Positions 12,430 to 47,000 of a DNA stretch of 64,000 bases are shown here, in pieces. The translations under genes and the position numbers were made by a program. The DNA lies in the IMG/VR virus record IMGVR_UViG_3300021255_002417, positions 1-64,000 of that record; one strand, written 5' to 3'. Source of the DNA: a virus. Lineage: Duplodnaviria; Caudoviricetes. The notes under the pieces are model-generated. The model made no database searches. It saw only the letters and a list, made by a program, of their open reading frames with translations, and was not told where the DNA came from. Positions within the stretch are counted from its first letter, which is position 1. Every line of letters begins with the position of its first letter.

Positions 12430-14697
12430 TTATTGCATATAGTCATAATCATCTTCTTCTAATTCAGGAATATAAATATCTTCACTTGGTTCAGGATTAT
12501 TATCAACAGTGCTATCTTGAATAGATTCCATTTGTGGAGTAAATGTGCCATCAAATGTATCTGGATCATATTCAAATGGAATTAGCTCGCCAAATGATTT
12601 TCCAATTGAAAGATCTGGTAACATTGGAACTTCCCAATCTGGGAGTTTAATTGTTTGACACCTCATAATAATTGGAACAACTTCTTTTAAAAGCTTTTTA
12701 GGTACTAGATAGTTAATTTCATCGTGAATTGTACAAACCCATTTAACGCCTTTATCTTTATATGGAATAAATAGTTCTTTCCATAATCTTACTAGCATAA
12801 GTTTAAGTAAGTCACCAGCTGCACCCTGAACTGCTGTATTTTTAACTGTCCTTGTACCAAAACCAACCTTTTGCCTGTCTGTACTATTTAAATAGTATTT
12901 TACACGGCGAGGTCTACCAAAATATGTTTTAACATAACCATTCTTTTTTGCAAATCGTACAGCATTTCGTTGTCCAATCTCAATTGATGGTAATGCCTTT
13001 TTAAATGTATCAATAAATTCTTCACATTCTTCTAATGACATATCTGGAAACTGATTATGAAATCCATAAGCAGTTGATCCATACAAAATACCAAATGATG
13101 CAGCCTTTGCTTTTTTACGAGCTTCTTTGCAATAATTCTCTTCACCAAAAATCTTATAGGCTGTTAATTTATGAACATCTTGATTTGTATTAAAAGCATG
13201 AATCCATGTTGGCTCTTTATATATATTTGCAACCAATCTTAACTCTTCAGCTTTCATATCGACAGATACTATCACTGAATCATTATCAGGTGGTCTAATT
13301 GCTTTTCGTACATTTAAATGTGGATCTTGTCCTTCTGTTAAACCTAAACTACCTTCTGGATTATTATCAAAAACCCAACCACATAAATCTTCACCATTTG
13401 CAATTTGTTCATCAGTTGCTTTATGACAATGATAATTATGTGAATGTGGCTTTGGAAAACTTTGTATATTTAATGGTGAAAAGAATTTATTTTTTCCATC
13501 AGTCCCTGATGCTAATCTCCCAGTTGGGACCTTACAAGTAAAGTAATTAAATCTAATTGGATGCTTTTCAATTTCTTCTGGTGCTGAAATTTTTAATAAA
13601 GTTTCAAGGTATGAATTGTCAAATTTCAAAAGCTGTTTATATTCTACTAGCTTACGTAAATATTCATTATCACCATGTGTAGCAAAATAAGTACTAATAG
13701 TTTTAATATCTGTTTTCATTTGTCCAGTTGCTGTTCTAGAACCTGTGTCAATGCCAAGCTGCTGAAATACAGACATTAATTCTCTACCTGATGATAGATT
13801 ATATTCATGACCTACTTGTGCATAAAGATACTTTTTAAGCTCATCTAAATGAGCTAGAACATCACCACGAATTGATTTAAGATATTCATGATCAACATTT
13901 ATTGGTGTATTTTCTAATCTCATTAGAGGATATAAACATTCATTATCAAGTTTACCTGCAGCACCTGATTCTACATAATAACGTTCTGTTTTAAAGAAAA
14001 GATTATAAGTAGCTAACGCGTCTAAAGAAGCATATCTATAACCACTTGCAGCTGGTAAATATCCAAAGTTAGTTTCACCACCAGTAGTCTCTTCAAATGT
14101 TGGTGGATTCCAGCCAAGAAAATGCTTTTCTGATTTTTTCAACGATGGCATTACAACATTAGTGTCTGAAAGCCAAACTGAACATTGAACATCAAAGTAT
14201 TTAGTACTTGAAAGATCAAACGGATATATCTTTTCATTTGGTTCAGGCGTATAACCATACTTCTCAGGTGTCATAAACTCAAGGAATCGCATATCAAATC
14301 TTGCATTATATAATAAATGCAATTTTGATTTACAAATCATTGCATATAAAACTTTTAAACCTCTATAGCCAATCGCAATATCTGGATGTGTAAGCGGTAC
14401 ATAATAACCATTATGCCCATCTTGTGTAAAAGAATAACCTACAATTAAACCTTCAACAAGATCACCAGTTTTAACACCTTTTTCAGGACTTAAATCAGAT
14501 GTTTCAGTGTCCCATGCAAAAAATGAATCTGGTTTAAACTCATTTTTATAAAAGTCCATTAACTCTTCATAAGAATGAATTAAATGATGTTTGAGATTAT
14601 ATACATCTTCAAAGTTTTCCAAAATAGGAACAGCTTTTACATAATGTTCATATCCTGAATTATCTTTTGAACTTCCTAATTTTTTTCTTTGTGCCAT
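12430..14697 (-). CDS. polA: Family A DNA polymerase with 3'-5' exonuclease
   Basis: Exo I WDTET, YNARFD, YASLDA; TGRLAS; motif A VDMKAEELR; motif B RKKAKAASFGILYG (Phe at the 762-equivalent position); motif C TIHDEI. Confidence 0.95.
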   Translation of the reverse strand: MAQRKKLGSSKDNSGYEHYVKAVPILENFEDVYNLKHHLIHSYEELMDFYKNEFKPDSFFAWDTETSDLSPEKGVKTGDLVEGLIVGYSFTQDGHNGYYVPLTHPDIAIGYRGLKVLYAMICKSKLHLLYNARFDMRFLEFMTPEKYGYTPEPNEKIYPFDLSSTKYFDVQCSVWLSDTNVVMPSLKKSEKHFLGWNPPTFEETTGGETNFGYLPAASGYRYASLDALATYNLFFKTERYYVESGAAGKLDNECLYPLMRLENTPINVDHEYLKSIRGDVLAHLDELKKYLYAQVGHEYNLSSGRELMSVFQQLGIDTGSRTATGQMKTDIKTISTYFATHGDNEYLRKLVEYKQLLKFDNSYLETLLKISAPEEIEKHPIRFNYFTCKVPTGRLASGTDGKNKFFSPLNIQSFPKPHSHNYHCHKATDEQIANGEDLCGWVFDNNPEGSLGLTEGQDPHLNVRKAIRPPDNDSVIVSVDMKAEELRLVANIYKEPTWIHAFNTNQDVHKLTAYKIFGEENYCKEARKKAKAASFGILYGSTAYGFHNQFPDMSLEECEEFIDTFKKALPSIEIGQRNAVRFAKKNGYVKTYFGRPRRVKYYLNSTDRQKVGFGTRTVKNTAVQGAAGDLLKLMLVRLWKELFIPYKDKGVKWVCTIHDEINYLVPKKLLKEVVPIIMRCQTIKLPDWEVPMLPDLSIGKSFGELIPFEYDPDTFDGTFTPQMESIQDSTVDNNPEPSEDIYIPELEEDDYDYMQ

Positions 14698-14816: not shown

Positions 14817-15008
14817 TTATTTATTATTTAATAATTTCTTAGATTGGGCTATAATAATTTCTGACATAGCTTTAATATTTTCAGCTATATTTAATACTTC
14901 TGTTAAATTATAATTATCATCCATAAATATAATTTCACGCAGTTGTTTACTTAATTTATTTATGATACCCTCTGCTGATTCAATGCAGCATTTAGCTTCA
15001 TCGTCCAT
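14817..15008 (-). CDS. Hypothetical protein
   Basis: 63-aa ORF coupled to the upstream MTase stop. Confidence 0.55.
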   Translation of the reverse strand: MDDEAKCCIESAEGIINKLSKQLREIIFMDDNYNLTEVLNIAENIKAMSEIIIAQSKKLLNNK

Positions 15009-16684
15009 TAATTAAACCATCTTATTTCAGGAAAACCTTTATATCCTTTTTTCCAAACAAACCAAGCATAACAAACAGCTGAAGCATTATTACTATTACT
15101 TACACCATTCATATAGCATTTCATTCTTGAAGTTGAAACCCAAACTCTTATTGGAGGATATTTGTCAAATAAATGTCTTCTGGATTTACCTTCAAGAAAT
15201 GTTAATTTAAGGAACATACAAACATATCTTCCATCATCAACAAGTGATAGCGCCTTTTCTACAAATGATTTTGCACAGTTACCACAAAAAAATTCTAATC
15301 CATTTCTTCGTAATAAAAATACACCATTCTTTTTCAAATTTAAACACCATACTTTACCAGTATATTCTACAGCACACTTATCATTTTTATTCGATGGGAA
15401 ATACATACGATTATATATACTATTTCTATTCTCATATATTATATAAAGTGCATGATTTATTCCATCGCTTGTTTTATATTTTGAATGTACAATATGTGAC
15501 AATAAACCAGTCTTTAATAAAAGCTCTTGTATATCTTCAGCCAGCTTTTTAGATGCAGTTCTAAAAATTCTAGCTTTAGATGTTTTTGTATTAAATAACG
15601 AACCATCACCAAAGAAATATGCATTAAGAAAACATGAAATTTGTTGTGATGTTAAATTCTTAATATCTTCAGGAATAAATTTATCTGCTGATTTTCCAAA
15701 TTGTTTTAAATAATGCCAAAGCTGTTCATTATGAATTTCAAAACTTATACATGGCGATTTTTTACCTTTTACATCAGCATATTCTTTATATGTAAACGGG
15801 AGTTTTGATAATATTTCTCGAACTCGATAAGCTGTTTTTTCTGATTGTTTTATAGTTACAGTTTTTCTATAATTATTATTTATATTAGTTGTATGTCTAC
15901 AACACCCATCTGCTAACCATAATCCAAAGAACTCAAGCCAGCTATTCATATTAATCTTAATTTCTTCTTTATATATAGGCTGTGCATGTTTACAACCAGC
16001 TATGCCAGGTAAAACAAAAATATCTTTTTGAATACCTTTCCATATATAACCAAGTTTTGGTATATAGTGTGCGCCTCTTATATATTTACTTTTTATTAGA
16101 TCATTATCTTTAATGCTAAGCTTATTGCTCTTAGCATCAAAAGCAAACATACGATGGTTATCAGTTACCATAATATCCATGTGACTTTTTTTAAAATGGT
16201 ACATCTTCTCATCGTCTGTTTTATCACGAATAATTATTGAGTTTATTGTACTCCATTCAAGTTCCATAGTATTTGGGTTAACAGATAAAATTTCATCAGA
16301 TTCTTTAATATCTGTATAATATAGCCAACCTCGCTTTGTATAACACTGTGTTTCAGAATCAAAGCAGTTATAGGGCGGGTTAGTAATAATATCAGCATTA
16401 TGCATTGGTGTTTCACACGTAAGAAAATCAAGAATCTCTATTCCATCTTTTCTAGCAATAATATCTGAATTTCTTACATGTTTTCCAGCTGCTGTAAATA
16501 CATCTGATAATGATAAGCTACCACATGCACACTCCCAAATATTATCTGATATATCTGGTTCCAATTGTAATAACCATTCTGCTGCTTTTGAATCTGATGA
16601 ATAAAAATCATGATCTGCTCTATCACAATCAGAATGATTGCTACATCCATTTGTTACAAAAAGTGAACTGCTACTTTTGCCCAT
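15008..16684 (-). CDS. N6-adenine DNA methyltransferase interrupted by an intein
   Basis: DFYSS, WECACG, DFL, DIITNPPY, FVEKAL, YAWFVW around a 363-aa insert. Confidence 0.88.
   Translation of the reverse strand: MGKSSSSLFVTNGCSNHSDCDRADHDFYSSDSKAAEWLLQLEPDISDNIWECACGSLSLSDVFTAAGKHVRNSDIIARKDGIEILDFLTCETPMHNADIITNPPYNCFDSETQCYTKRGWLYYTDIKESDEILSVNPNTMELEWSTINSIIIRDKTDDEKMYHFKKSHMDIMVTDNHRMFAFDAKSNKLSIKDNDLIKSKYIRGAHYIPKLGYIWKGIQKDIFVLPGIAGCKHAQPIYKEEIKINMNSWLEFFGLWLADGCCRHTTNINNNYRKTVTIKQSEKTAYRVREILSKLPFTYKEYADVKGKKSPCISFEIHNEQLWHYLKQFGKSADKFIPEDIKNLTSQQISCFLNAYFFGDGSLFNTKTSKARIFRTASKKLAEDIQELLLKTGLLSHIVHSKYKTSDGINHALYIIYENRNSIYNRMYFPSNKNDKCAVEYTGKVWCLNLKKNGVFLLRRNGLEFFCGNCAKSFVEKALSLVDDGRYVCMFLKLTFLEGKSRRHLFDKYPPIRVWVSTSRMKCYMNGVSNSNNASAVCYAWFVWKKGYKGFPEIRWFN
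15278..16366 (-). mobile_element. Intein with LAGLIDADG homing endonuclease domain
   Basis: Starts CFDSETQ (Cys107), ends ...NGLEFFCGN followed by Cys+1; internal WLEFFGLWLADG and FLNAYFFGDGS. Confidence 0.9.
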
Positions 16685-17168: not shown

Positions 17169-17641
17169 ATATTATCGTTACTTATATATTGTAGTACGCA
17201 TCTTGACAAAGCATTAGCTTCTTTTGTAGTACCATGCTTTTGTAAATTTGTACCACCTCTATTATATGCTTTTACTAATAATGCAATATGGTTAAACCGT
17301 TCACGCAAATGTTTTATATATCTTGCTGCGGCTATCGTATTACATTTAATATCATCTATATCATCAATAGAACATTCATCTGGCATATAAAATTTATAAA
17401 TTGGGTATGTTACCTGAAAGAACCCATGCGCACCTTTATCTGACACAACATTTCTACAACCACTTTCACAAACTACTAAATAAAAGTAATCAGCACTAAT
17501 GCCTTCATTTAAAAGTAAAGATACTATATACTCTTTATAAGGTAAACATCTGTCAAGTCTGCCATCAGCATAAGACTGTTTAATAGGCAATAAAACAAAC
17601 AAGATAGATGTAAATATTAAAAACATAATTTTGTTTATCAT
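17165..17641 (-). CDS. Lytic transglycosylase (SLT family) with signal peptide
   Basis: LVVCESG (catalytic Glu), SDKGAHGFFQV, AYNRG. Confidence 0.85.
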   Translation of the reverse strand: MINKIMFLIFTSILFVLLPIKQSYADGRLDRCLPYKEYIVSLLLNEGISADYFYLVVCESGCRNVVSDKGAHGFFQVTYPIYKFYMPDECSIDDIDDIKCNTIAAARYIKHLRERFNHIALLVKAYNRGGTNLQKHGTTKEANALSRCVLQYISNDNM

Positions 17642-18543
17642 TTTATCATTTTACTGTAGTAGATTTGAAACTCATTCCAAGAAAGATTGCCACCGTTTTC
17701 TTTATGCTCTTTATAAGCCAAAGATACAGCTTTCATTTGAGCAGAATGTATTTCTTTCATTTTAATCTTCGTTTCATCACTGTGTTTTTTACCATACATA
17801 GGTGCTTTTTCACCAGTGTTATGTACACCCCACATTGGATTCTTTTCACCAAGCTTTGACTCACTTAGTTTTTTCTTAGTTTCTTCTGTATGTTGCTTAC
17901 CAATATGTGATGTAACCATTTTATTTCTAATTGACTCATCTTGCCATTGATTTTTAGCAGCTTCACTTAATTTTAATCTAGTTTCATTAGTTGGATGCTT
18001 ACCATAATTTGGGTTATTTTCACCAGAATTATTAATTCTATACAGTTCACGTAGCTCATCATTCCAGCGAGCTTTATTAGATTTACTAATTTTTTCACGG
18101 TGTTCAACTGAAAAATGCTTACCATAGTTATGATTGTTTTCTCCAGAATACTTTATTGATTGTTCTATTCTGCGCCATGGGTGATCATTCCAAAACTTAA
18201 TATTCGACTTACTTATTTTTATTCTAGTCTCTTCTGAATATCTATGAATTTCTGTATGTTCTTTTGGTGTGATAAATATTATATATTTACCATACTCGAA
18301 ATGGTCATTTCCATTTTCATCAATTTCAAATCCCCAAAGTTCGTAATGTTCATCATTGTATTTTCTTTGTTCTTCTGTATCTCGTAAATGGTGTCGAACA
18401 GTAGCATTAGGATCGGGGTTATACTTTAATGACTTCTGAATTTCTCGACATTTTTTTGAATATTCAAATACATTAATACCTAATTTTGCAGCTTTCCAAT
18501 AATTATAATAATTCATATAATAATACCAAAATATAAATAGCAC
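17638..18543 (-). CDS. HNH-like homing endonuclease with NUMOD3 repeats
   Basis: TVRHH...N...EHTEIH followed by repeated YGKH(F/P/T)xxE(T/H)xxK(I/L)S motifs. Confidence 0.8.
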   Translation of the reverse strand: MLFIFWYYYMNYYNYWKAAKLGINVFEYSKKCREIQKSLKYNPDPNATVRHHLRDTEEQRKYNDEHYELWGFEIDENGNDHFEYGKYIIFITPKEHTEIHRYSEETRIKISKSNIKFWNDHPWRRIEQSIKYSGENNHNYGKHFSVEHREKISKSNKARWNDELRELYRINNSGENNPNYGKHPTNETRLKLSEAAKNQWQDESIRNKMVTSHIGKQHTEETKKKLSESKLGEKNPMWGVHNTGEKAPMYGKKHSDETKIKMKEIHSAQMKAVSLAYKEHKENGGNLSWNEFQIYYSKMIK

Positions 18544-22561: not shown

Positions 22562-22634
22562 TGCCTCAAGAAAGATTCGAACTTCCGACCGCCGCATTAC
22601 AGGTGCGATGCTCTACCAACTGAGCTATTGAGGC
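22562..22634 (-). tRNA. tRNA-Thr(UGU), C33 variant
   Basis: GCCTCAA/TTGAGGC acceptor, anticodon arm TCGCA-CCTGTAA-TGCGG, T loop TTCGAAT. Confidence 0.85.
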
Positions 22635-22637
22635 AAA

Positions 22638-22722
22638 CGGAGAAAATAGGATTCGAACCTATAATACATTTACATGTATGACGGATTAGCAATCCGCTGC
22701 GATACCATTACGCCATTTCTCC
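22638..22722 (-). tRNA. tRNA-Ser(GCU)
   Basis: GGAGAAA/TTTCTCC acceptor, GCGGA-TTGCTAA-TCCGT, long variable arm, G73. Confidence 0.92.
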
Positions 22723-22852: not shown

Positions 22853-23746
22853 CTACTTACGAATAAAGCATTTTGAATAAAATTCATGAAAGTGTTTTCT
22901 AATATAAGCCCCAGCTTTCTGTGAAGAAATACCAAAAATATTTGCTATCTTCTCAACCCAACCAAACTTTGAAAAATCAATATCTGATTCTAATATCAAA
23001 TTCCATCTAAAACTTTTTAGAGATTCATCCACTTTATTTCTATAGTGCTTATTGATTGTATGCACTTCTTTAAGTGGCTTACTATTTACTTTCTTACTAT
23101 GTAAAGCTTTGCTAAATGCCTGTTCGTCATTTATTTCATAAAAACAATCAGCAGGCTCATCATACCTAAAGAACTTACATCCTATTGTAGATATAATAAA
23201 GTTTTGTTTTACAAGATCATGCTGTTTTACTTTCTCTTTATGGTGACGAGCTTCATCATATTCAAATGCAATATTTAGTTCTCTGTCATAGCCATCAAGA
23301 AAATAAGGACCTACTGTAATCTCACCACCGTTCAATGCATGTTGTAAATGCCAACCCATCTTTTCATTTAAGCTATCAATGTACTCACACGCTTTATGAT
23401 TAAAATTGGCACTATGACCAACACGCTTCTTAGCAGCAAATGATAATTTAATTCGTGTCTCATCTGAAATTGTCTGTACAGGTTTGTCTATATGATTTGG
23501 GTTGCTTTTACAATATTTAATATGATTAGTTAACCCAGACTTTTTCGATGAAACATAACCGCAAAACTCGCACTTAAAATAACAACATGTATTTTGAGGA
23601 ACAGTTCTACCTAATGAATCTGTATGCAGTGAAAGTTTAGCTTCACATGATTTATAATGTAAATATAAATCATTTCTTGTTGATAACTCTGTATTACAAT
23701 ACTTACAAACCCATTTATATGACCTATTTGATTTACAATTACACAT
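22853..23746 (-). CDS. Freestanding endonuclease: C2H2-like Zn fingers, PD-(D/E)XK (Vsr/DUF559-like) domain, FSKFGWV C-terminal domain
   Basis: CKYC..H..C, CEFC..H..C, YFLDGYDRELNIAFEYDEARHH; ATG at 23746 follows AAAGGAGA. Confidence 0.75.
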   Translation of the reverse strand: MCNCKSNRSYKWVCKYCNTELSTRNDLYLHYKSCEAKLSLHTDSLGRTVPQNTCCYFKCEFCGYVSSKKSGLTNHIKYCKSNPNHIDKPVQTISDETRIKLSFAAKKRVGHSANFNHKACEYIDSLNEKMGWHLQHALNGGEITVGPYFLDGYDRELNIAFEYDEARHHKEKVKQHDLVKQNFIISTIGCKFFRYDEPADCFYEINDEQAFSKALHSKKVNSKPLKEVHTINKHYRNKVDESLKSFRWNLILESDIDFSKFGWVEKIANIFGISSQKAGAYIRKHFHEFYSKCFIRK

Positions 23747-23856
23747 AATCAATCTCCTTTTAACTTTATTAAAGAGTTACTGCAATAACTCTAATATGTG
23801 TGGTTAGATAGGTTGGAGATTCCTATCAACTGGTTGCAGCCAGCTGTCCCACTAAT
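23747..23856 (-). ncRNA. Structured leader RNA, copy 1
   Basis: Nearly identical to 25220..25331 with compensatory changes. Confidence 0.8.
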
Positions 23857-24060: not shown

Positions 24061-24092
24061 TCTAGGTAGTGGGATTTGAACCTGCGATCCTT
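24061..24092 (-). pseudogene. 3' remnant of a Pro-like tRNA gene overlapping the endonuclease C-terminus
   Basis: GCAGG-TTCAAAT-CCCAC-TACCTAG-A; acceptor strand pairs with CTAGGTG at 25431. Confidence 0.65.
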
Positions 24093-25219
24093 CTATATAC
24101 ATAATTTATAAGATCTGTTGAATTAACAACCTTATAAATTTGACGACGAGTTAAACCTGTAACTTTCGATACCTTTTCAACCCATCCAAATTTAGAAAGA
24201 TCTACGTCACTATTGAGTATTGTTTCCTTTCTAAAATTCATTTCTTCATGTGAAATTTTATTAGCGTTTAGACGACCTTTAGTGTCTAATAAACCTTTCT
24301 TTCCTGCTTCACTAATATGAAGCGCATGATCAAGTTCTTTTTGCTTTTTCAAATCATACTTAATAATAGCTTCTTCACTAATAGGTTGTATATCACATCC
24401 AATCTTATCGTGAAAGTAAATCTCAAGCTGTCTCTCAACACCGTCTTTTGGTATAATTCTTAATGTAGTAAAACCTAATGCATCAGCCTCTATGTCTTTT
24501 AATCTGTCTGTGTCTATAGATTTACTATGCCAATATTCACCATCTATTTCTATAATAAGATTAAATTGTGGTACAAAGAAATCAACATACCTTCTAAAAG
24601 AATCAGAAACAATCAGCTTATTATGTTCAATACATAATTGATGGCTAATTAACCAATCGTAGGCAACTTGCTCTGGATATGTCATTTTACTTTTATTACA
24701 AGAAACTCTTGCGTTTGGATGTTTTTCTGGATGTTCAAGATAAAGCTTTTTCTTTCTATCAGATTGAGCTTTTCTTCTTTCTTCAGTCCAAGGTAAATGA
24801 TGATCAGCCTGTTTTATTTTACCAGATCTAACATTCTCTGAGTATCTTTCAGCTTGTTGCTTAATAATATCACATGTATCTTTAGTTAAACCTTTGTTCC
24901 ATGCATGCTTACCACAATATTCAGCATGAGCTGACAGTTTATGTTCTTGTAATTCTCGTCTTGTTACGAATACTTCTTCACAATGACAACATTGCCAACC
25001 ATCTTTTGTAGTTATAAATCTATTTGGATTTAATCTGCAATGCTTTTCATGTACTGACAAGGCACATGGTCTATCAAAATTTTTATGACAAAACGCACAT
25101 TCTAATTTATCATAATTAGTTATAGAGTTATCATTTTCTTTACACCACTTAATATGGTTTGAATATGAAGACTTTAAATTAAACGATTTACCACATAGAC
25201 TACATATAAATTCACACAT
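24062..25219 (-). CDS. Freestanding endonuclease: three C2H2-like Zn fingers, DUF559-like PD-(D/E)XK domain, LSKFGWV C-terminal domain
   Basis: TYPEQVAYDWL, YVDFFVPQFNLIIEIDGEYWHS; paralog of 22853..23746. Confidence 0.8.
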   Translation of the reverse strand: MCEFICSLCGKSFNLKSSYSNHIKWCKENDNSITNYDKLECAFCHKNFDRPCALSVHEKHCRLNPNRFITTKDGWQCCHCEEVFVTRRELQEHKLSAHAEYCGKHAWNKGLTKDTCDIIKQQAERYSENVRSGKIKQADHHLPWTEERRKAQSDRKKKLYLEHPEKHPNARVSCNKSKMTYPEQVAYDWLISHQLCIEHNKLIVSDSFRRYVDFFVPQFNLIIEIDGEYWHSKSIDTDRLKDIEADALGFTTLRIIPKDGVERQLEIYFHDKIGCDIQPISEEAIIKYDLKKQKELDHALHISEAGKKGLLDTKGRLNANKISHEEMNFRKETILNSDVDLSKFGWVEKVSKVTGLTRRQIYKVVNSTDLINYVYRRIAGSNPTT

Positions 25220-25587: not shown

Positions 25588-25661
25588 TGGTAGCGGTAGC
25601 CTGAATCGCACAGGCTCTTGTAGGGTATGAACCTACCGTGCTACTTTTACACTCTACCGCA
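25588..25661 (-). tRNA. tRNA-Met(CAU), initiator-like, encoded CCA
   Basis: 1:72 mismatch (T:T), GTAGG-TTCATAC-CCTAC, non-canonical T loop TGCGATT, ends ACCA. Confidence 0.7.
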
Positions 25662-25666
25662 ATAAA

Positions 25667-25974
25667 TAGCGAAGGTGAGAATTGAACTCACGACCAATGG
25701 TTTATCTTACTACTCTATATTTCTATAGCCACTTTATACAAAGTGTTGTAGTCTGGACTATCTCTTGTGCATATTCAAAAATGAACTTAGCATTGCCCTA
25801 TATAGTCTCTGCACATTTATAAAAGAAATTAGTTTTCTTTTAATTTAGCTCAAGATTGTCTACAGCATTACCTGTTTAGAGTTTCCTTGAATTAGGGGCA
25901 TTCTACTTTAAGCGTTTCCACTTAAGCACTCATATTATTAAAGACCACTGCTCTGACCGCTGAGCTACTCCGCT
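25667..25974 (-). tRNA. tRNA-Ile(UAU) split by a group I intron (exons 25974-25941 and 25705-25667)
   Basis: Joined exons give AGCGGAG/CTTCGCT acceptor and GTGGT-CTTATAA-ACCAT anticodon arm. Confidence 0.85.
25706..25940 (-). mobile_element. Group I intron (IC3-like, 235 nt, no ORF)
   Basis: P AATTCAAGGAAAC, Q AATCTTGAGC, R GTGCAGAGACT, S GATAGTCC, terminal G; exon CUU pairs with internal GAG (U.G at the splice site), as in trnL(UAA) introns. Confidence 0.88.
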
Positions 25975-25980
25975 ATAAAT

Positions 25981-26052
25981 ATACCATGAAAGATTCGAAC
26001 TTCCGACCGCCGCATTACAGGTGCGATGCTCTACCAACTGAGCTATTGAGGC
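25981..26052 (-). pseudogene. Chimeric second copy of tRNA-Thr(UGU) with a non-matching acceptor 3' strand
   Basis: Identical to 22570..22634 up to the T stem, then ATGGTAT instead of TTGAGGC. Confidence 0.7.
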
Positions 26053-26077
26053 AAACGGAGAAAATAGGATTCGAACC
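25988..26077. repeat. 90-bp exact direct repeat of 22570..22659
   Basis: Both ends fall in or next to T arms (TTCGAA). Confidence 0.9.
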
Positions 26078-26140
26078 CTCAAGGGAATAAATCCCGACAA
26101 ATTTTAAGTCTGTTTCCTTTACCAGTTTGGACATTCTCGC
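26056..26140 (-). pseudogene. Chimeric tRNA-Leu(UAA) carrying the 3' end of tRNA-Ser
   Basis: Leu body ACAGA-CTTAAAA-TTTGT; T stem GAGGG/CCTAT and acceptor GCGAGAA/TTTCTCC are mismatched. Confidence 0.7.
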
Positions 26141-29139: not shown

Positions 29140-29793
29140 TTAATTATCACTATTTGAATTAGCTTCAATGTCATCAAATAATACAGGTATTTTACTCTTT
29201 AGCTCAGCAAGTAAACGATCACAAATTGACCTCATTTGCGGATGGGCACACATATTATGCGATGATCTTAGCTTTAGTACATTGCGCCATTCTCTAATGT
29301 TTGCTGTCATTATAATCTCAGTTGCAGTAGATAGCGGTAAGACATTACGAGCAATCTCTGGCTTTACATTATTACTAAGCATTGCCATATAAGCGTCTTC
29401 AGCATTTTTACAAGACATCCACCAAATATTATAATCTGTAGAGTCTCTAGGTAAAAGATCTTCAGGCTCAATTACTTTAATCTCATTACCAAATTTATCT
29501 TTACTGTAGTTCACATATCGTGTAGATTCTTGACAATAACTAGCAATTCTATGTCTAACTAGTTCATTTGCGATTGCCCTGTCTACAATAAATTTAACTG
29601 ATAATTGAGAATGCTCAATAACAGCTTCATGACCACGATTAAGTATATTTTTACAAAATGTAAGGCATGAATCATCAGTAGTATTATTTTCTGACTTATA
29701 GCAAACTCTTCCAGCTCGCTCAATATCTTTAAGAATTTTAATTGGATCAGACAAGTCTGTTAAAATTTCATATGACTGTTGAATTACTTTCAT
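29140..29793 (-). CDS. thyX: FAD-dependent thymidylate synthase
   Basis: GHEAVIEH and ThyX motif RHRIASYCQESTRY. Confidence 0.93.
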   Translation of the reverse strand: MKVIQQSYEILTDLSDPIKILKDIERAGRVCYKSENNTTDDSCLTFCKNILNRGHEAVIEHSQLSVKFIVDRAIANELVRHRIASYCQESTRYVNYSKDKFGNEIKVIEPEDLLPRDSTDYNIWWMSCKNAEDAYMAMLSNNVKPEIARNVLPLSTATEIIMTANIREWRNVLKLRSSHNMCAHPQMRSICDRLLAELKSKIPVLFDDIEANSNSDN

Positions 29794-40974: not shown

Positions 40975-42189
40975 CTATTCACTTGCTTTGAAATTGTAAA
41001 TCGGTTTAATAACATCCACAATGTCAATAGTATCTTTAACTAATTCAATAATCTCGTTTGCATCTTTATATGCCATCGGCGATTCATCCAATGTGGATTC
41101 ATTTACCGAAGTAGTAAATATACCTTCCATTGAGTGTTTAAAATCATCCATTGAAATTGCTTCACAAGCTTTTGATCGCGACATCAACCGACCAGCTCCA
41201 TGCGGACCTGAACAGTTCCAATCTTCATTTCCTTTGCCGATTCCGATGATTGATCCATCTTTCATATTAAGCGGGATTATACATTTTTCACCTTTGTTAC
41301 AACGAATAGCTCCCTTGCGAATTATATTATCTTCAAAGTCAATGTAGTTGTGAACAGTGTGGAATGCTTCAACAGGATCAACTTTTAAAAATTCAATAAT
41401 ACGACGAGCAATCTCTTCACGATTTTTAACTGCATATTCTTGACATATTTTCATATCATGTAAATAGTCATCACGATGTGCACCTTCTAAATAACATAAA
41501 TCTTCCGGTACTTTTTCTATGTTAGCATATTTTTCTCGCAATTCACGAACAGCCTGTGCTATTTCTTTATGACGCAAAGCCTCTTTATATTCAGCAATCA
41601 GTTGTTCAGTTTTAGCTTTTACCTCTTCAGATTTTACATTGCAATCGTCAATAGCAATCGCCTGATAATATCGACAAACTTGCTGTCCTAAATTACGTGA
41701 ACCTGTATGAATAACTAAATAAACATTTCCTTTTGAATCTTTGTTTAATTCAATAAAATGGTTACCACCACCTAACGATCCAACAGAGCGGAATAAGTGT
41801 TCAACATTTTTAAGATATTTCCACATTTTTAAGTCCTGCAATTTTGCAAAACCTACGCAATGTTTATCATCATTCGCAGTCATTCCAGCCGGAACATTTT
41901 CATGAATAAATTTATCTAATCCAGCTAATACATCATCAGATATATCAACTTTACCTAATTCACAAACATACATTCCGCAGCCAATATCAACACCTACTAA
42001 ATTCGGAACAACTTTATCACCTAAATTTGCAGTAAATCCAATAACACAGCCTTTACCTGCATGAGTGTCCGGCATAATACGAACTTTCGCATCTCTAAAT
42101 ACTTTTACAGACAGTAACTGTTTTAACTGATCGTTGACTTCCTGTTCAACAGTTTTTGCAAAAATTTTTAAGTTCATATTAGCCTCCAA
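40975..42189 (-). CDS. rtcB: RtcB RNA 2',3'-cyclic phosphate ligase
   Basis: MPDTHAG, VGVDIGCG, GSLGGGNHFIE, HTGSR, VHNY, HGAGR, DESPMAYK. Confidence 0.95.
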   Translation of the reverse strand: MEANMNLKIFAKTVEQEVNDQLKQLLSVKVFRDAKVRIMPDTHAGKGCVIGFTANLGDKVVPNLVGVDIGCGMYVCELGKVDISDDVLAGLDKFIHENVPAGMTANDDKHCVGFAKLQDLKMWKYLKNVEHLFRSVGSLGGGNHFIELNKDSKGNVYLVIHTGSRNLGQQVCRYYQAIAIDDCNVKSEEVKAKTEQLIAEYKEALRHKEIAQAVRELREKYANIEKVPEDLCYLEGAHRDDYLHDMKICQEYAVKNREEIARRIIEFLKVDPVEAFHTVHNYIDFEDNIIRKGAIRCNKGEKCIIPLNMKDGSIIGIGKGNEDWNCSGPHGAGRLMSRSKACEAISMDDFKHSMEGIFTTSVNESTLDESPMAYKDANEIIELVKDTIDIVDVIKPIYNFKASE

Positions 42190-45830: not shown

Positions 45831-47000
45831 CTATCGGTGATATTTGAGAAGGAAGTTTGGAGATACACATTTAAAGTTCTGTTGACCATCTTGTGAATAG
45901 AAAACAAACCCTTCAATATCACCACCATCAATTGCAGATTTACATGAATCTACATAATTAACAATCTCTTCTACTGATTTTGGAATTTTATAATCATAAT
46001 CATAAACATGAACATGTGGCAATTCGCGATCTTCACAGATCTTAACCATTTCTTTGATTGGTAATCGTTTGCCATCGAACCAAATATGAAATACAACAAA
46101 GTCATGTTTATTTTTTAATGAATAAGTACGTTTTTGAATTCCATCACCATAAGTCTCACCCTGAATTGCAACGGTCTTTAAACCATGCACAATTTTTAGA
46201 GATTTGAGAAGTTCTTGCATATTGTATTTAAATCCAGATTCTGCCCACACGTTGCATTTATAGTAATTGCCACCATCTGAGTCTTTATCAGGATTTTTAA
46301 TTACATTATGTGAACCTACCATATATTTATCTTTTTCATTCAAGATAAATGAAGTAGAACAACCATCAACTTTTTCAGTGATAATATATTTATCATTGCA
46401 ACCAAATAAATGTGGGAGATTTTGAATACGTTCAGATCCAGTCTTTGGTAACCATTCCGGCCATTTACATTTATCTTTATCTTTTTTATGTACAAAGACT
46501 TTTGCTAATAACCATCGCACTGGTTTATATTTCATCAAATATTTTACAATTGGATTTTTAAAGAATTTCTTATGACGATCCATTGCACGTTGAAAATCAG
46601 AGACTTTAGGTTTAGAGCATTGATTTTCACATACAGGCTCAGGATCATATTTTTCTACATGAAGTTTATCAGTTACAAAATCGCCTTCTTTACAACCTTT
46701 TAATTCAGGAAAATCGGATAATGGAAGTACAAGTCCTTGTGATACAACTTTGCAGATCTTAATAGTTTTAACTAGATATTTGCGTTTTTCCATAAATGCA
46801 AATCGTGCATCGTTCGCAGGCAACTTAGAGTCAATTTCAAAGTATACTACAAGATCACCAGTTTTAATATCTTTAGGCGCAACGCACCACCACCCCAAAA
46901 CTTTTACATAGTGAACAGAATCATAACCAGGAAGTTCTTTTGCTTCAGACACTTTAACAATGTATGCAAGTTCTCGTTCATTAGTTTTTGGATTTAACAT
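45831..47000 (-). CDS. ATP-dependent RNA ligase, Rnl2/DRB0094-like
   Basis: N-terminal OB-like VLGWWCV..GDLVVYFEIDS; motif I EKVDGCS; IQGETYG; FHIW; IEGFVF; FKCVS. Confidence 0.85.
   Translation of the reverse strand: MLNPKTNERELAYIVKVSEAKELPGYDSVHYVKVLGWWCVAPKDIKTGDLVVYFEIDSKLPANDARFAFMEKRKYLVKTIKICKVVSQGLVLPLSDFPELKGCKEGDFVTDKLHVEKYDPEPVCENQCSKPKVSDFQRAMDRHKKFFKNPIVKYLMKYKPVRWLLAKVFVHKKDKDKCKWPEWLPKTGSERIQNLPHLFGCNDKYIITEKVDGCSTSFILNEKDKYMVGSHNVIKNPDKDSDGGNYYKCNVWAESGFKYNMQELLKSLKIVHGLKTVAIQGETYGDGIQKRTYSLKNKHDFVVFHIWFDGKRLPIKEMVKICEDRELPHVHVYDYDYKIPKSVEEIVNYVDSCKSAIDGGDIEGFVFYSQDGQQNFKCVSPNFLLKYHR

Follow-up and report, generated by a model that had tools for sequence, protein, structure and literature searches.

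The window, a 64,000-nt stretch of viral DNA that forms the first 64 kb of a 72,497-bp IMG/VR virus record, carries on its minus strand a tRNA gene (25974–25667, from A25974 to the discriminator A25667, with CCA not encoded) that is interrupted in its anticodon loop. This gene is very probably a functional phage tRNA-Ile(UAU), in which an IC3-like group I ribozyme without an ORF, a mobile passenger of the trnL(UAA) family, separates U34 from A35. The first-pass annotation had proposed a group I intron in a tRNA-Ile(UAU) at exactly these coordinates, and a match to the group I intron model together with a junction that has the U and terminal G of group I splice sites confirms the proposal. The phage is large, uncultured, and, as also annotated, AT-rich (30% GC); nearly all of its genes lie on the minus strand, and CheckV estimates the record to be ~34% complete, with two thirds of the genome missing.

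Anatomy of the split tRNA gene and its intron

The 5′ half of the gene comprises one strand of a 7-bp acceptor stem, the D arm, and the anticodon-stem strand GUGGU, followed by CUU, while the 3′ half runs through AUAA, ACCAU, a 5-nt variable loop, the T arm, and the matching acceptor strand to A73. The 73-mer obtained by joining the two halves is called tRNA-Ile(tat) by ARAGORN, with a canonical cloverleaf of 7/4/5/5 bp that includes two G–U pairs and bears the anticodon UAU, so that splicing restores a clean tRNA-Ile(UAU), as the annotation had it. When run without introns, ARAGORN does not call the split Ile gene in the window. A promoter and terminator scan returned sites no more numerous than those in shuffled sequence.

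The group I model search that the first-pass annotation had suggested yields a match to RF00028 (Intron_gpI) at 25735–25950(−), covering full model positions 1–253, with a score of 61 bits against a gathering score of 50 and E values of 7e-15 in a 901-nt search and 1.4e-16 in a genome search. The Rfam gathering scan of the whole window reported no intron, which is a filter effect, since the focused scan finds it. Helices P1–P10 were mapped on the window intron, and their pairs were then counted on an alignment of 22 related introns. Pairing is kept in 85.4% of cells, compared with 34–41% for slid partners; 51 of the 70 pairs have changed on both sides; and the covariation score is 0.470, compared with 0.07–0.15 in slid controls. 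The conservation of the helices is thus far beyond chance. Specifically, P3, P4, and P8 of the conserved core covary (in P8, the outer pairs), whereas P7 is identical in all 22 introns and hence gives no covariation information. When the intron is folded by itself to its minimum free energy (MFE), P2–P6, P8, and the P9 domain form, with a z-score of only −1.65.

The fold is a compact P2–P9 arrangement that lacks P5abc, with P5/P5a reduced to a simple hairpin and GAAA loops in L2 and in one P9 hairpin. The P8 motif GCUAAG...UAUGC resembles the 11-nt GAAA-tetraloop receptor, and most relatives have CCUAAG...UAUGG at this place. The absence of P5abc, the GAAA loops, and the receptor-like motif in P8 are features that we take, from the Azoarcus and Anabaena literature, to be marks of IC3 introns. 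The intron is accordingly described here as IC3-like and of the trnL(UAA) type, an assignment made by likeness to trnL(UAA) introns and not by subgroup models, and the kinship with these introns that had been noticed at first reading is borne out. It shares with them the insertion between U34 and A35 (loop position 3), the U(−1)/ωG rule, the small size and lack of an ORF, the P2 with a GAAA loop, the missing P5abc, and a P9 domain ending in GUAGUAAG; over the ~115-nt 3′ part it is 71–77% identical to phage trnL(UAA) introns. It differs in that its host is a class I tRNA-Ile(UAU) with a 5-nt variable loop, its guide is UAUGAG rather than UUUGAG, and it resides in a phage genome, the phage's own tRNA-Leu(UAA) being intronless.

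Table 1. Elements of the split tRNA-Ile(UAU) gene (window positions). L211 is the same gene in a related phage; paired cells and changed pairs refer to the 22-intron alignment.
Feature	Position	Strand	Content and support
5′ exon of tRNA-Ile(UAU), 34 nt	25941..25974	(−)	Acceptor 5′ strand, D arm, anticodon stem 5′ strand, loop C32 U33 U34; 100% identical in L211
Group I intron, 235 nt, without ORF, terminal ωG at 25706	25706..25940	(−)	RF00028, mapped helices, covariation, MFE fold
Internal guide 5′-UAUGAG-3′	25929..25934	(−)	P1: GAG with exon CUU; P10: UAU with AUA at the start of the 3′ exon
P2 hairpin, 7 bp, GAAA tetraloop	25908..25925	(−)	7/7 pairs changed on both sides; 88% of cells paired
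P3 (25900–25896 with 25798–25794), enclosing P4 (25890–25885/25855–25850), P5/P5a, P6, and the AU-rich P6a hairpin	25794..25900	(−)	P3 95.5% paired, 5/5 pairs changed on both sides
P7 (GACUA 25807–25803 with UAGUC 25760–25756; guanosine-binding helix), enclosing the P3 3′ strand and P8 (25792–25768)	25756..25807	(−)	Helix mapping; P7 invariant, outer pairs of P8 covary
P9 domain: ACUAC/GUAGU closing helix, hairpins 25745–25730 and 25728–25715 (GAAA loop), then AAG with ωG	25709..25752	(−)	GAAA hairpin 100% paired, 5/5 pairs changed on both sides
3′ exon of tRNA-Ile(UAU), 39 nt	25667..25705	(−)	A35 U36 A37 A38, anticodon stem 3′ strand, 5-nt variable loop, T arm, acceptor 3′ strand, A73; identical in L211

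Splice junction and internal guide

All eight junctions that leave a 7-nt loop were tried, after Williams (bioRxiv 10.1101/2020.01.27.920355), and CTT/...G/ATAA is the sole one that combines a U at position −1 with a terminal intron G. The resulting loop, CUUAUAA, carries the anticodon UAU and places the insertion between U34 and A35, the site given by the first-pass annotation. In P1, exon CUU pairs with guide GAG, and U25941 forms a wobble pair with G25931 at the splice site, a column that is U–G in 16 of the 22 aligned relatives. At the other end of the intron, G25706 is the ωG, and P10 is formed by guide UAU and exon AUA. The exon–guide part of P1 is short, with three pairs only; the Azoarcus intron likewise uses a 3-bp pairing, CAU/GUG. 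Ten of the 15 Ile introns have the triplet UAU 5′ of GAG, six of the 19 Leu introns have UUU at this place, and the Thr intron has UAC. We conclude that the guide changes in step with the 3′ exon from one host tRNA to another.

A different junction with a different anticodon, such as the ochre-type "tta", or a pseudogene that does not splice at all, is extremely unlikely. A TAA follows the 5′ splice site, so that several junctions leave a 7-nt loop, and the intron mode of ARAGORN indeed reports tRNA-Stop(tta), i(38,235), an ochre suppressor with the intron one step 3′ of the anticodon. However, we treat this call as an artefact, since both critical positions of its junction, −1 and the last intron base, are A, which is incompatible with group I chemistry. 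It is also inconsistent between phages, since the first intron bases differ and alternative junctions therefore yield different anticodons in the two: in L211 the ARAGORN-type junction would give UAG instead of UUA. With the U/G junction, the anticodon is UAU in the two phages alike, and ARAGORN itself calls tat on L211's own record. Stop-codon use in the window phage is ordinary, TAA ending 52 of 69 ORFs, which argues against an ochre suppressor. The complete (100%) conservation of the exons next to an intron that has diverged through compensatory changes speaks against a pseudogene.

The arrangement of guide, helices, and ωG suggests the following course of events. The tRNA cluster would be transcribed as a precursor, in which the intron would fold into P1–P9, with UAUGAG holding both the end of the 5′ exon, CUU (P1, with its U–G wobble), and the start of the 3′ exon, AUA (P10). 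Free guanosine would cut after U34, G25706 would then enter the guanosine-binding site in P7, and the exons would be ligated with no protein required. Host enzymes would add CCA and modifications, and the 73-nt product would read AUA without lysidine. The insertion site is that of the constitutively self-splicing trnL introns, and the window intron, too, most likely self-splices constitutively as a mobile passenger.

Relatives of the locus and spread of the intron family

A related phage (G001; locus L211/L251), whose record is almost equal in size, has the same split gene with exons 100% identical to those of the window. Its intron is ~80% identical (81% mean column identity over the aligned stretch, 79% over the 205 columns used for the tree) and scores 49.1 bits, just below the Rfam cut-off of 50. 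Compensatory changes between the two introns occur in P2, in P9, and in the GAAA hairpin; for example, P2 is UUAAGUG/CGCUUAA in one phage and CCAAUAA/UUAUUGG in the other, and a second helix is CUAUA/UAUAG in one and CUAUG/CAUAG in the other. The order Tyr–Leu(UAA)–Ile is common to both phages, and the tRNA-Leu(UAA) two genes upstream of the Ile gene is intronless in both. A search with the pattern AGATAAACCATTGGTC gave 13 viral matches, of which L211 is the sole true homologue, the others being coding sequence. In another phage (locus L196), an intronless tRNA-Ile(UAU) is identical to the predicted spliced product at 66 of 74 positions (89%), with matching anticodon arm and variable loop.

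A 90-bp exact repeat is present at 22570–22659 and 25988–26077; the second copy overwrites the 3′ end of the intronless tRNA-Leu(UAA) (26057–26140) and creates a tRNA-Thr(UGU) look-alike (25980–26052) with a broken acceptor stem, while the Leu(UAA) gene at the corresponding place in G001 is intact. On the other side lies a tRNA-like gene with anticodon CAU (25591–25661(−)), which scores 48 bits with Rfam and is not called by ARAGORN; U1 and U72 are mismatched, the D loop lacks GG, the T loop (UGCGAUU) is non-canonical, and the candidate isotypes are initiator, elongator Met, and Ile2.

The core motif ATAGTCCAGACTACA is found in more than 118 viral contigs, and a U/G-aware search defined both exons for 40 of them. 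A majority of these 40 are tRNA-Leu(UAA) genes with the insertion at the 34/35 site; the other host tRNAs are Asn(GUU), Thr(UGU), Lys(UUU), Arg(UCU), one CAU tRNA, and suppressor tRNAs, namely six with anticodon CUA (including that of Prevotella phage Lak-B1) and two with UCA. Most of the remaining contigs with the motif continue into AAAAUCC..., the 3′ exon of tRNA-Leu(UAA). Some introns of the family are 300–500 nt long and may hold ORFs, and a minority of the motif matches fall inside apparent protein-coding genes. In the Lak-B1 genome (locus L002, MK250020.1, ~412,065–412,315), a 245-nt member of the family interrupts a CUA suppressor tRNA after U35; no Rfam match at E ≤ 0.01 and no ARAGORN call were obtained at this locus. 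Introns of this type are thus common among phage tRNA genes, where they have hardly been described.

A pattern composed of the P9 end plus ATAA retrieves split tRNA-Ile(UAU) genes in ~20 contigs (six viral, ~14 further metagenomic), which comprise ~11 different tRNA bodies, all with the same U/AU insertion. The same pattern found no tRNA in 185,579 prokaryote genomes, one per species, although the pattern derives from phage introns and its result does not imply that bacteria are without such introns; behind the single prokaryote match (Larkinella, L224), the 3′ half of a tRNA does not follow.

In a maximum-likelihood tree of 47 introns, built on a short alignment of 205 columns, the Ile-hosted introns are interleaved with Leu-hosted and other introns, and well-supported branches force at least 5 changes of label. 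Monophyly of the Ile-hosted introns fails the AU test (p = 1.7e-8), and the introns have therefore switched host tRNA repeatedly; in terms of this alignment, a single origin of the Ile introns is not tenable, the exact number of switches being uncertain at 205 columns. The most likely route is that a trnL(UAA)-family intron was retargeted to the near-identical tRNA-Ile loop (CUUAUAA, compared with CUUAAAA in tRNA-Leu) by a one-base change of the guide, and that a switch of this type took place several times. In view of its scatter over many phage tRNAs, the intron is best read as a mobile, largely neutral passenger.

AUA decoding, the role of the intron, and its significance

ATA makes up 30% of the Ile codons of the phage (22.5 per 1000 codons in minus-strand ORFs of at least 100 aa). 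The available 72.5 kb, from a record that is ~34% complete, contain no TilS-type domain, and no further Ile tRNA was seen in them. The spliced tRNA sequence has A73, A37, and A38, and charging with Ile is inferred from the anticodon and from the likeness to other phage tRNA-Ile(UAU) genes. Since UAU needs no lysidine, a TilS-independent AUA decoder, as put forward by the first-pass annotation, is plausible. The same annotation regarded UAU-Ile as rare, which holds for bacteria and does not hold for phages: in ~1 Mb of viral loci chosen regardless of Ile, ARAGORN finds 17 Ile(UAU) and 13 Ile(GAU) genes. A tRNA-Ile(UAU) is thus rare in bacteria and common in phages, and the unusual part of the locus is the intron.

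The window also encodes an RtcB tRNA-splicing ligase (40975–42189(−), Pfam E 3e-61) and, at 45831–47000(−), an RNA ligase of the Rnl type that has an OB-fold domain. The two look like a kit for tRNA repair, which probably counters anticodon nucleases of the host. Inside the tRNA cluster, one ORF has a C2H2 zinc finger and an HNH-like match (22853–23752(−)) and another a zinc finger and DUF559 (24062–25219(−)). Near the cluster, a homing-endonuclease PHROG is matched by an ORF at 17638–18543(−), and just downstream of the gene for a family A DNA polymerase (12430–14697) lies an ORF of 558 aa (15008–16684(−)) that contains a LAGLIDADG domain. A 217-aa ORF (29140–29793(−)) matches positions 388–587 only of an 866-position thymidylate synthase PHROG profile and could be one piece of a gene that is split or fused.

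The gating part of the earlier proposal has not fared as well as the decoding part. It would require splicing to be rate-limiting or conditional (on GTP, Mg2+, or infection stage), so that it gates the supply of the AUA decoder and the translation of AUA-rich genes, and we regard this as improbable. AUA is a frequent codon, the gene encodes the sole Ile tRNA seen in 72.5 kb, and a related phage retains the split gene with intact exons; but neither the sequence nor the relatives bear a regulatory sign, no regulatory element, ORF, or protein-binding feature being evident, and the same family interrupts many unrelated phage tRNAs (Leu, Asn, Thr, Lys, Arg, and suppressors). Moreover, repeated switching of the host tRNA is the pattern of a mobile element and not of a dedicated regulator, and intronless tRNA-Ile(UAU) genes are common in other phages. 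There is a small chance that the intron protects the locus, either by disrupting the DNA site (CTTATAA plus the anticodon arm) of a free-standing phage endonuclease, in the manner of collaborative homing, or by letting the precursor evade host anticodon nucleases. Collaborative homing has reportedly been established by Bonocora and Shub for other ORF-less phage introns, two endonuclease-like ORFs lie inside the tRNA cluster, and the RtcB and RNA ligase suggest pressure from tRNA-cutting defences. However, tblastn with the window's four endonuclease-like proteins against all 249 other fetched intron/tRNA loci (~2 Mb) gave one weak match and no recurrent partner, and endonucleases are common in phage tRNA clusters with or without introns.

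More generally, it is unlikely that the intron is kept because it is useful to the phage, be it by shielding the anticodon-loop DNA from a homing endonuclease, by shielding the precursor from anticodon nucleases, or by tying the release of the AUA decoder (elsewhere, of a suppressor tRNA) to the state of the cell; if it were, the repeated retargeting among Leu, Ile, and suppressor tRNAs would be adaptive. That the intron hides the anticodon loop in the precursor, as had been pointed out in the first-pass annotation, is true but trivial. The presence of RtcB and the Rnl-type ligase in the window also raises the idea that the intron is no longer active on its own and that a nuclease cuts it out, with the exons resealed by one of the two ligases. 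This is very unlikely: all core helices and the conserved J8/7–P7 sequence are present, the score is above the Rfam cut-off, and the U(−1), the ωG, and the P1/P10 guide, which are relevant to ribozyme splicing only, are retained. Because the ribozyme is complete, a ligase is not needed. A self-splicing passenger, selfish rather than regulatory, is hence the reading that we favour for the intron.

Among known systems, the tRNA-Ile(CAU) intron of Azoarcus sp. BH72 ("Ile2.5Ug"; PMC13168695, PMC3984707) resembles the window intron in being an IC3 intron in the anticodon loop of an AUA-reading tRNA with a very short P1 exon–guide pairing, but it is a bacterial intron that lies after the anticodon (loop position 5) of a lysidine-requiring CAU tRNA, whereas the window intron splits the UAU anticodon of a phage tRNA. 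The tRNA-Ile(UAU) of Mycoplasma mobile (PMC3575796) also decodes AUA without TilS or lysidine, but it is cellular and uninterrupted and has a co-adapted IleRS and ribosome, whereas the tRNA described here is a phage accessory tRNA with an intron. The phage group I introns of mRNAs (T4 td, nrdB, and nrdD; Twort; Bastillevirinae, PMC11878797) are likewise phage-borne and self-splicing, but belong mostly to other subgroups and often carry homing endonuclease genes.

A 2014 review noted that every phage intron known by then interrupted a protein-coding gene, although tRNA genes are numerous in phages (PMC3984707). In Lak megaphages, Devoto et al. (2019) described "enigmatic" tRNA introns, which they left unclassified, and they knew of no earlier phage tRNA intron (PMC6784885). 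Those introns, too, interrupt phage tRNAs, and the one at the Lak-B1 locus L002 is of the family described here; they were not classed as group I in that work, and the host tRNA of L002 has the anticodon CUA and is not a tRNA-Ile. A full-text literature search found no paper that describes a group I intron in tRNA-Ile(UAU) or in any phage tRNA gene. Williams (2020) raised the bacterial tRNA/site classes from 4 to 21 (bioRxiv 10.1101/2020.01.27.920355). Judged against the four classical bacterial cases, and not against the 21 classes of Williams, tRNA-Ile(UAU) is an addition to the host genes of this well-known type of intron.

As an example of a trnL-type ribozyme in a phage tRNA gene, the locus is clean and fully mappable. 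Split genes of this kind escape or mislead standard tRNA finders (here, ARAGORN missed the Ile gene, and its intron mode turned it into a stop suppressor), and phage tRNA inventories, and arguments from codon usage, are biased as a consequence. The CUA and UCA suppressor tRNAs that are split by the same family are relevant to studies of stop-codon recoding in phages. Furthermore, a one-base change of the guide (UUU to UAU) shifts the intron between near-identical loops, which bears on how tRNA introns spread, and the relatives of the intron make up a small natural set of ribozymes with programmable exon specificity. The interest of the finding lies in the breadth of this family of phage tRNA introns and in the retargeting of its guide, rather than in a special regulatory role.
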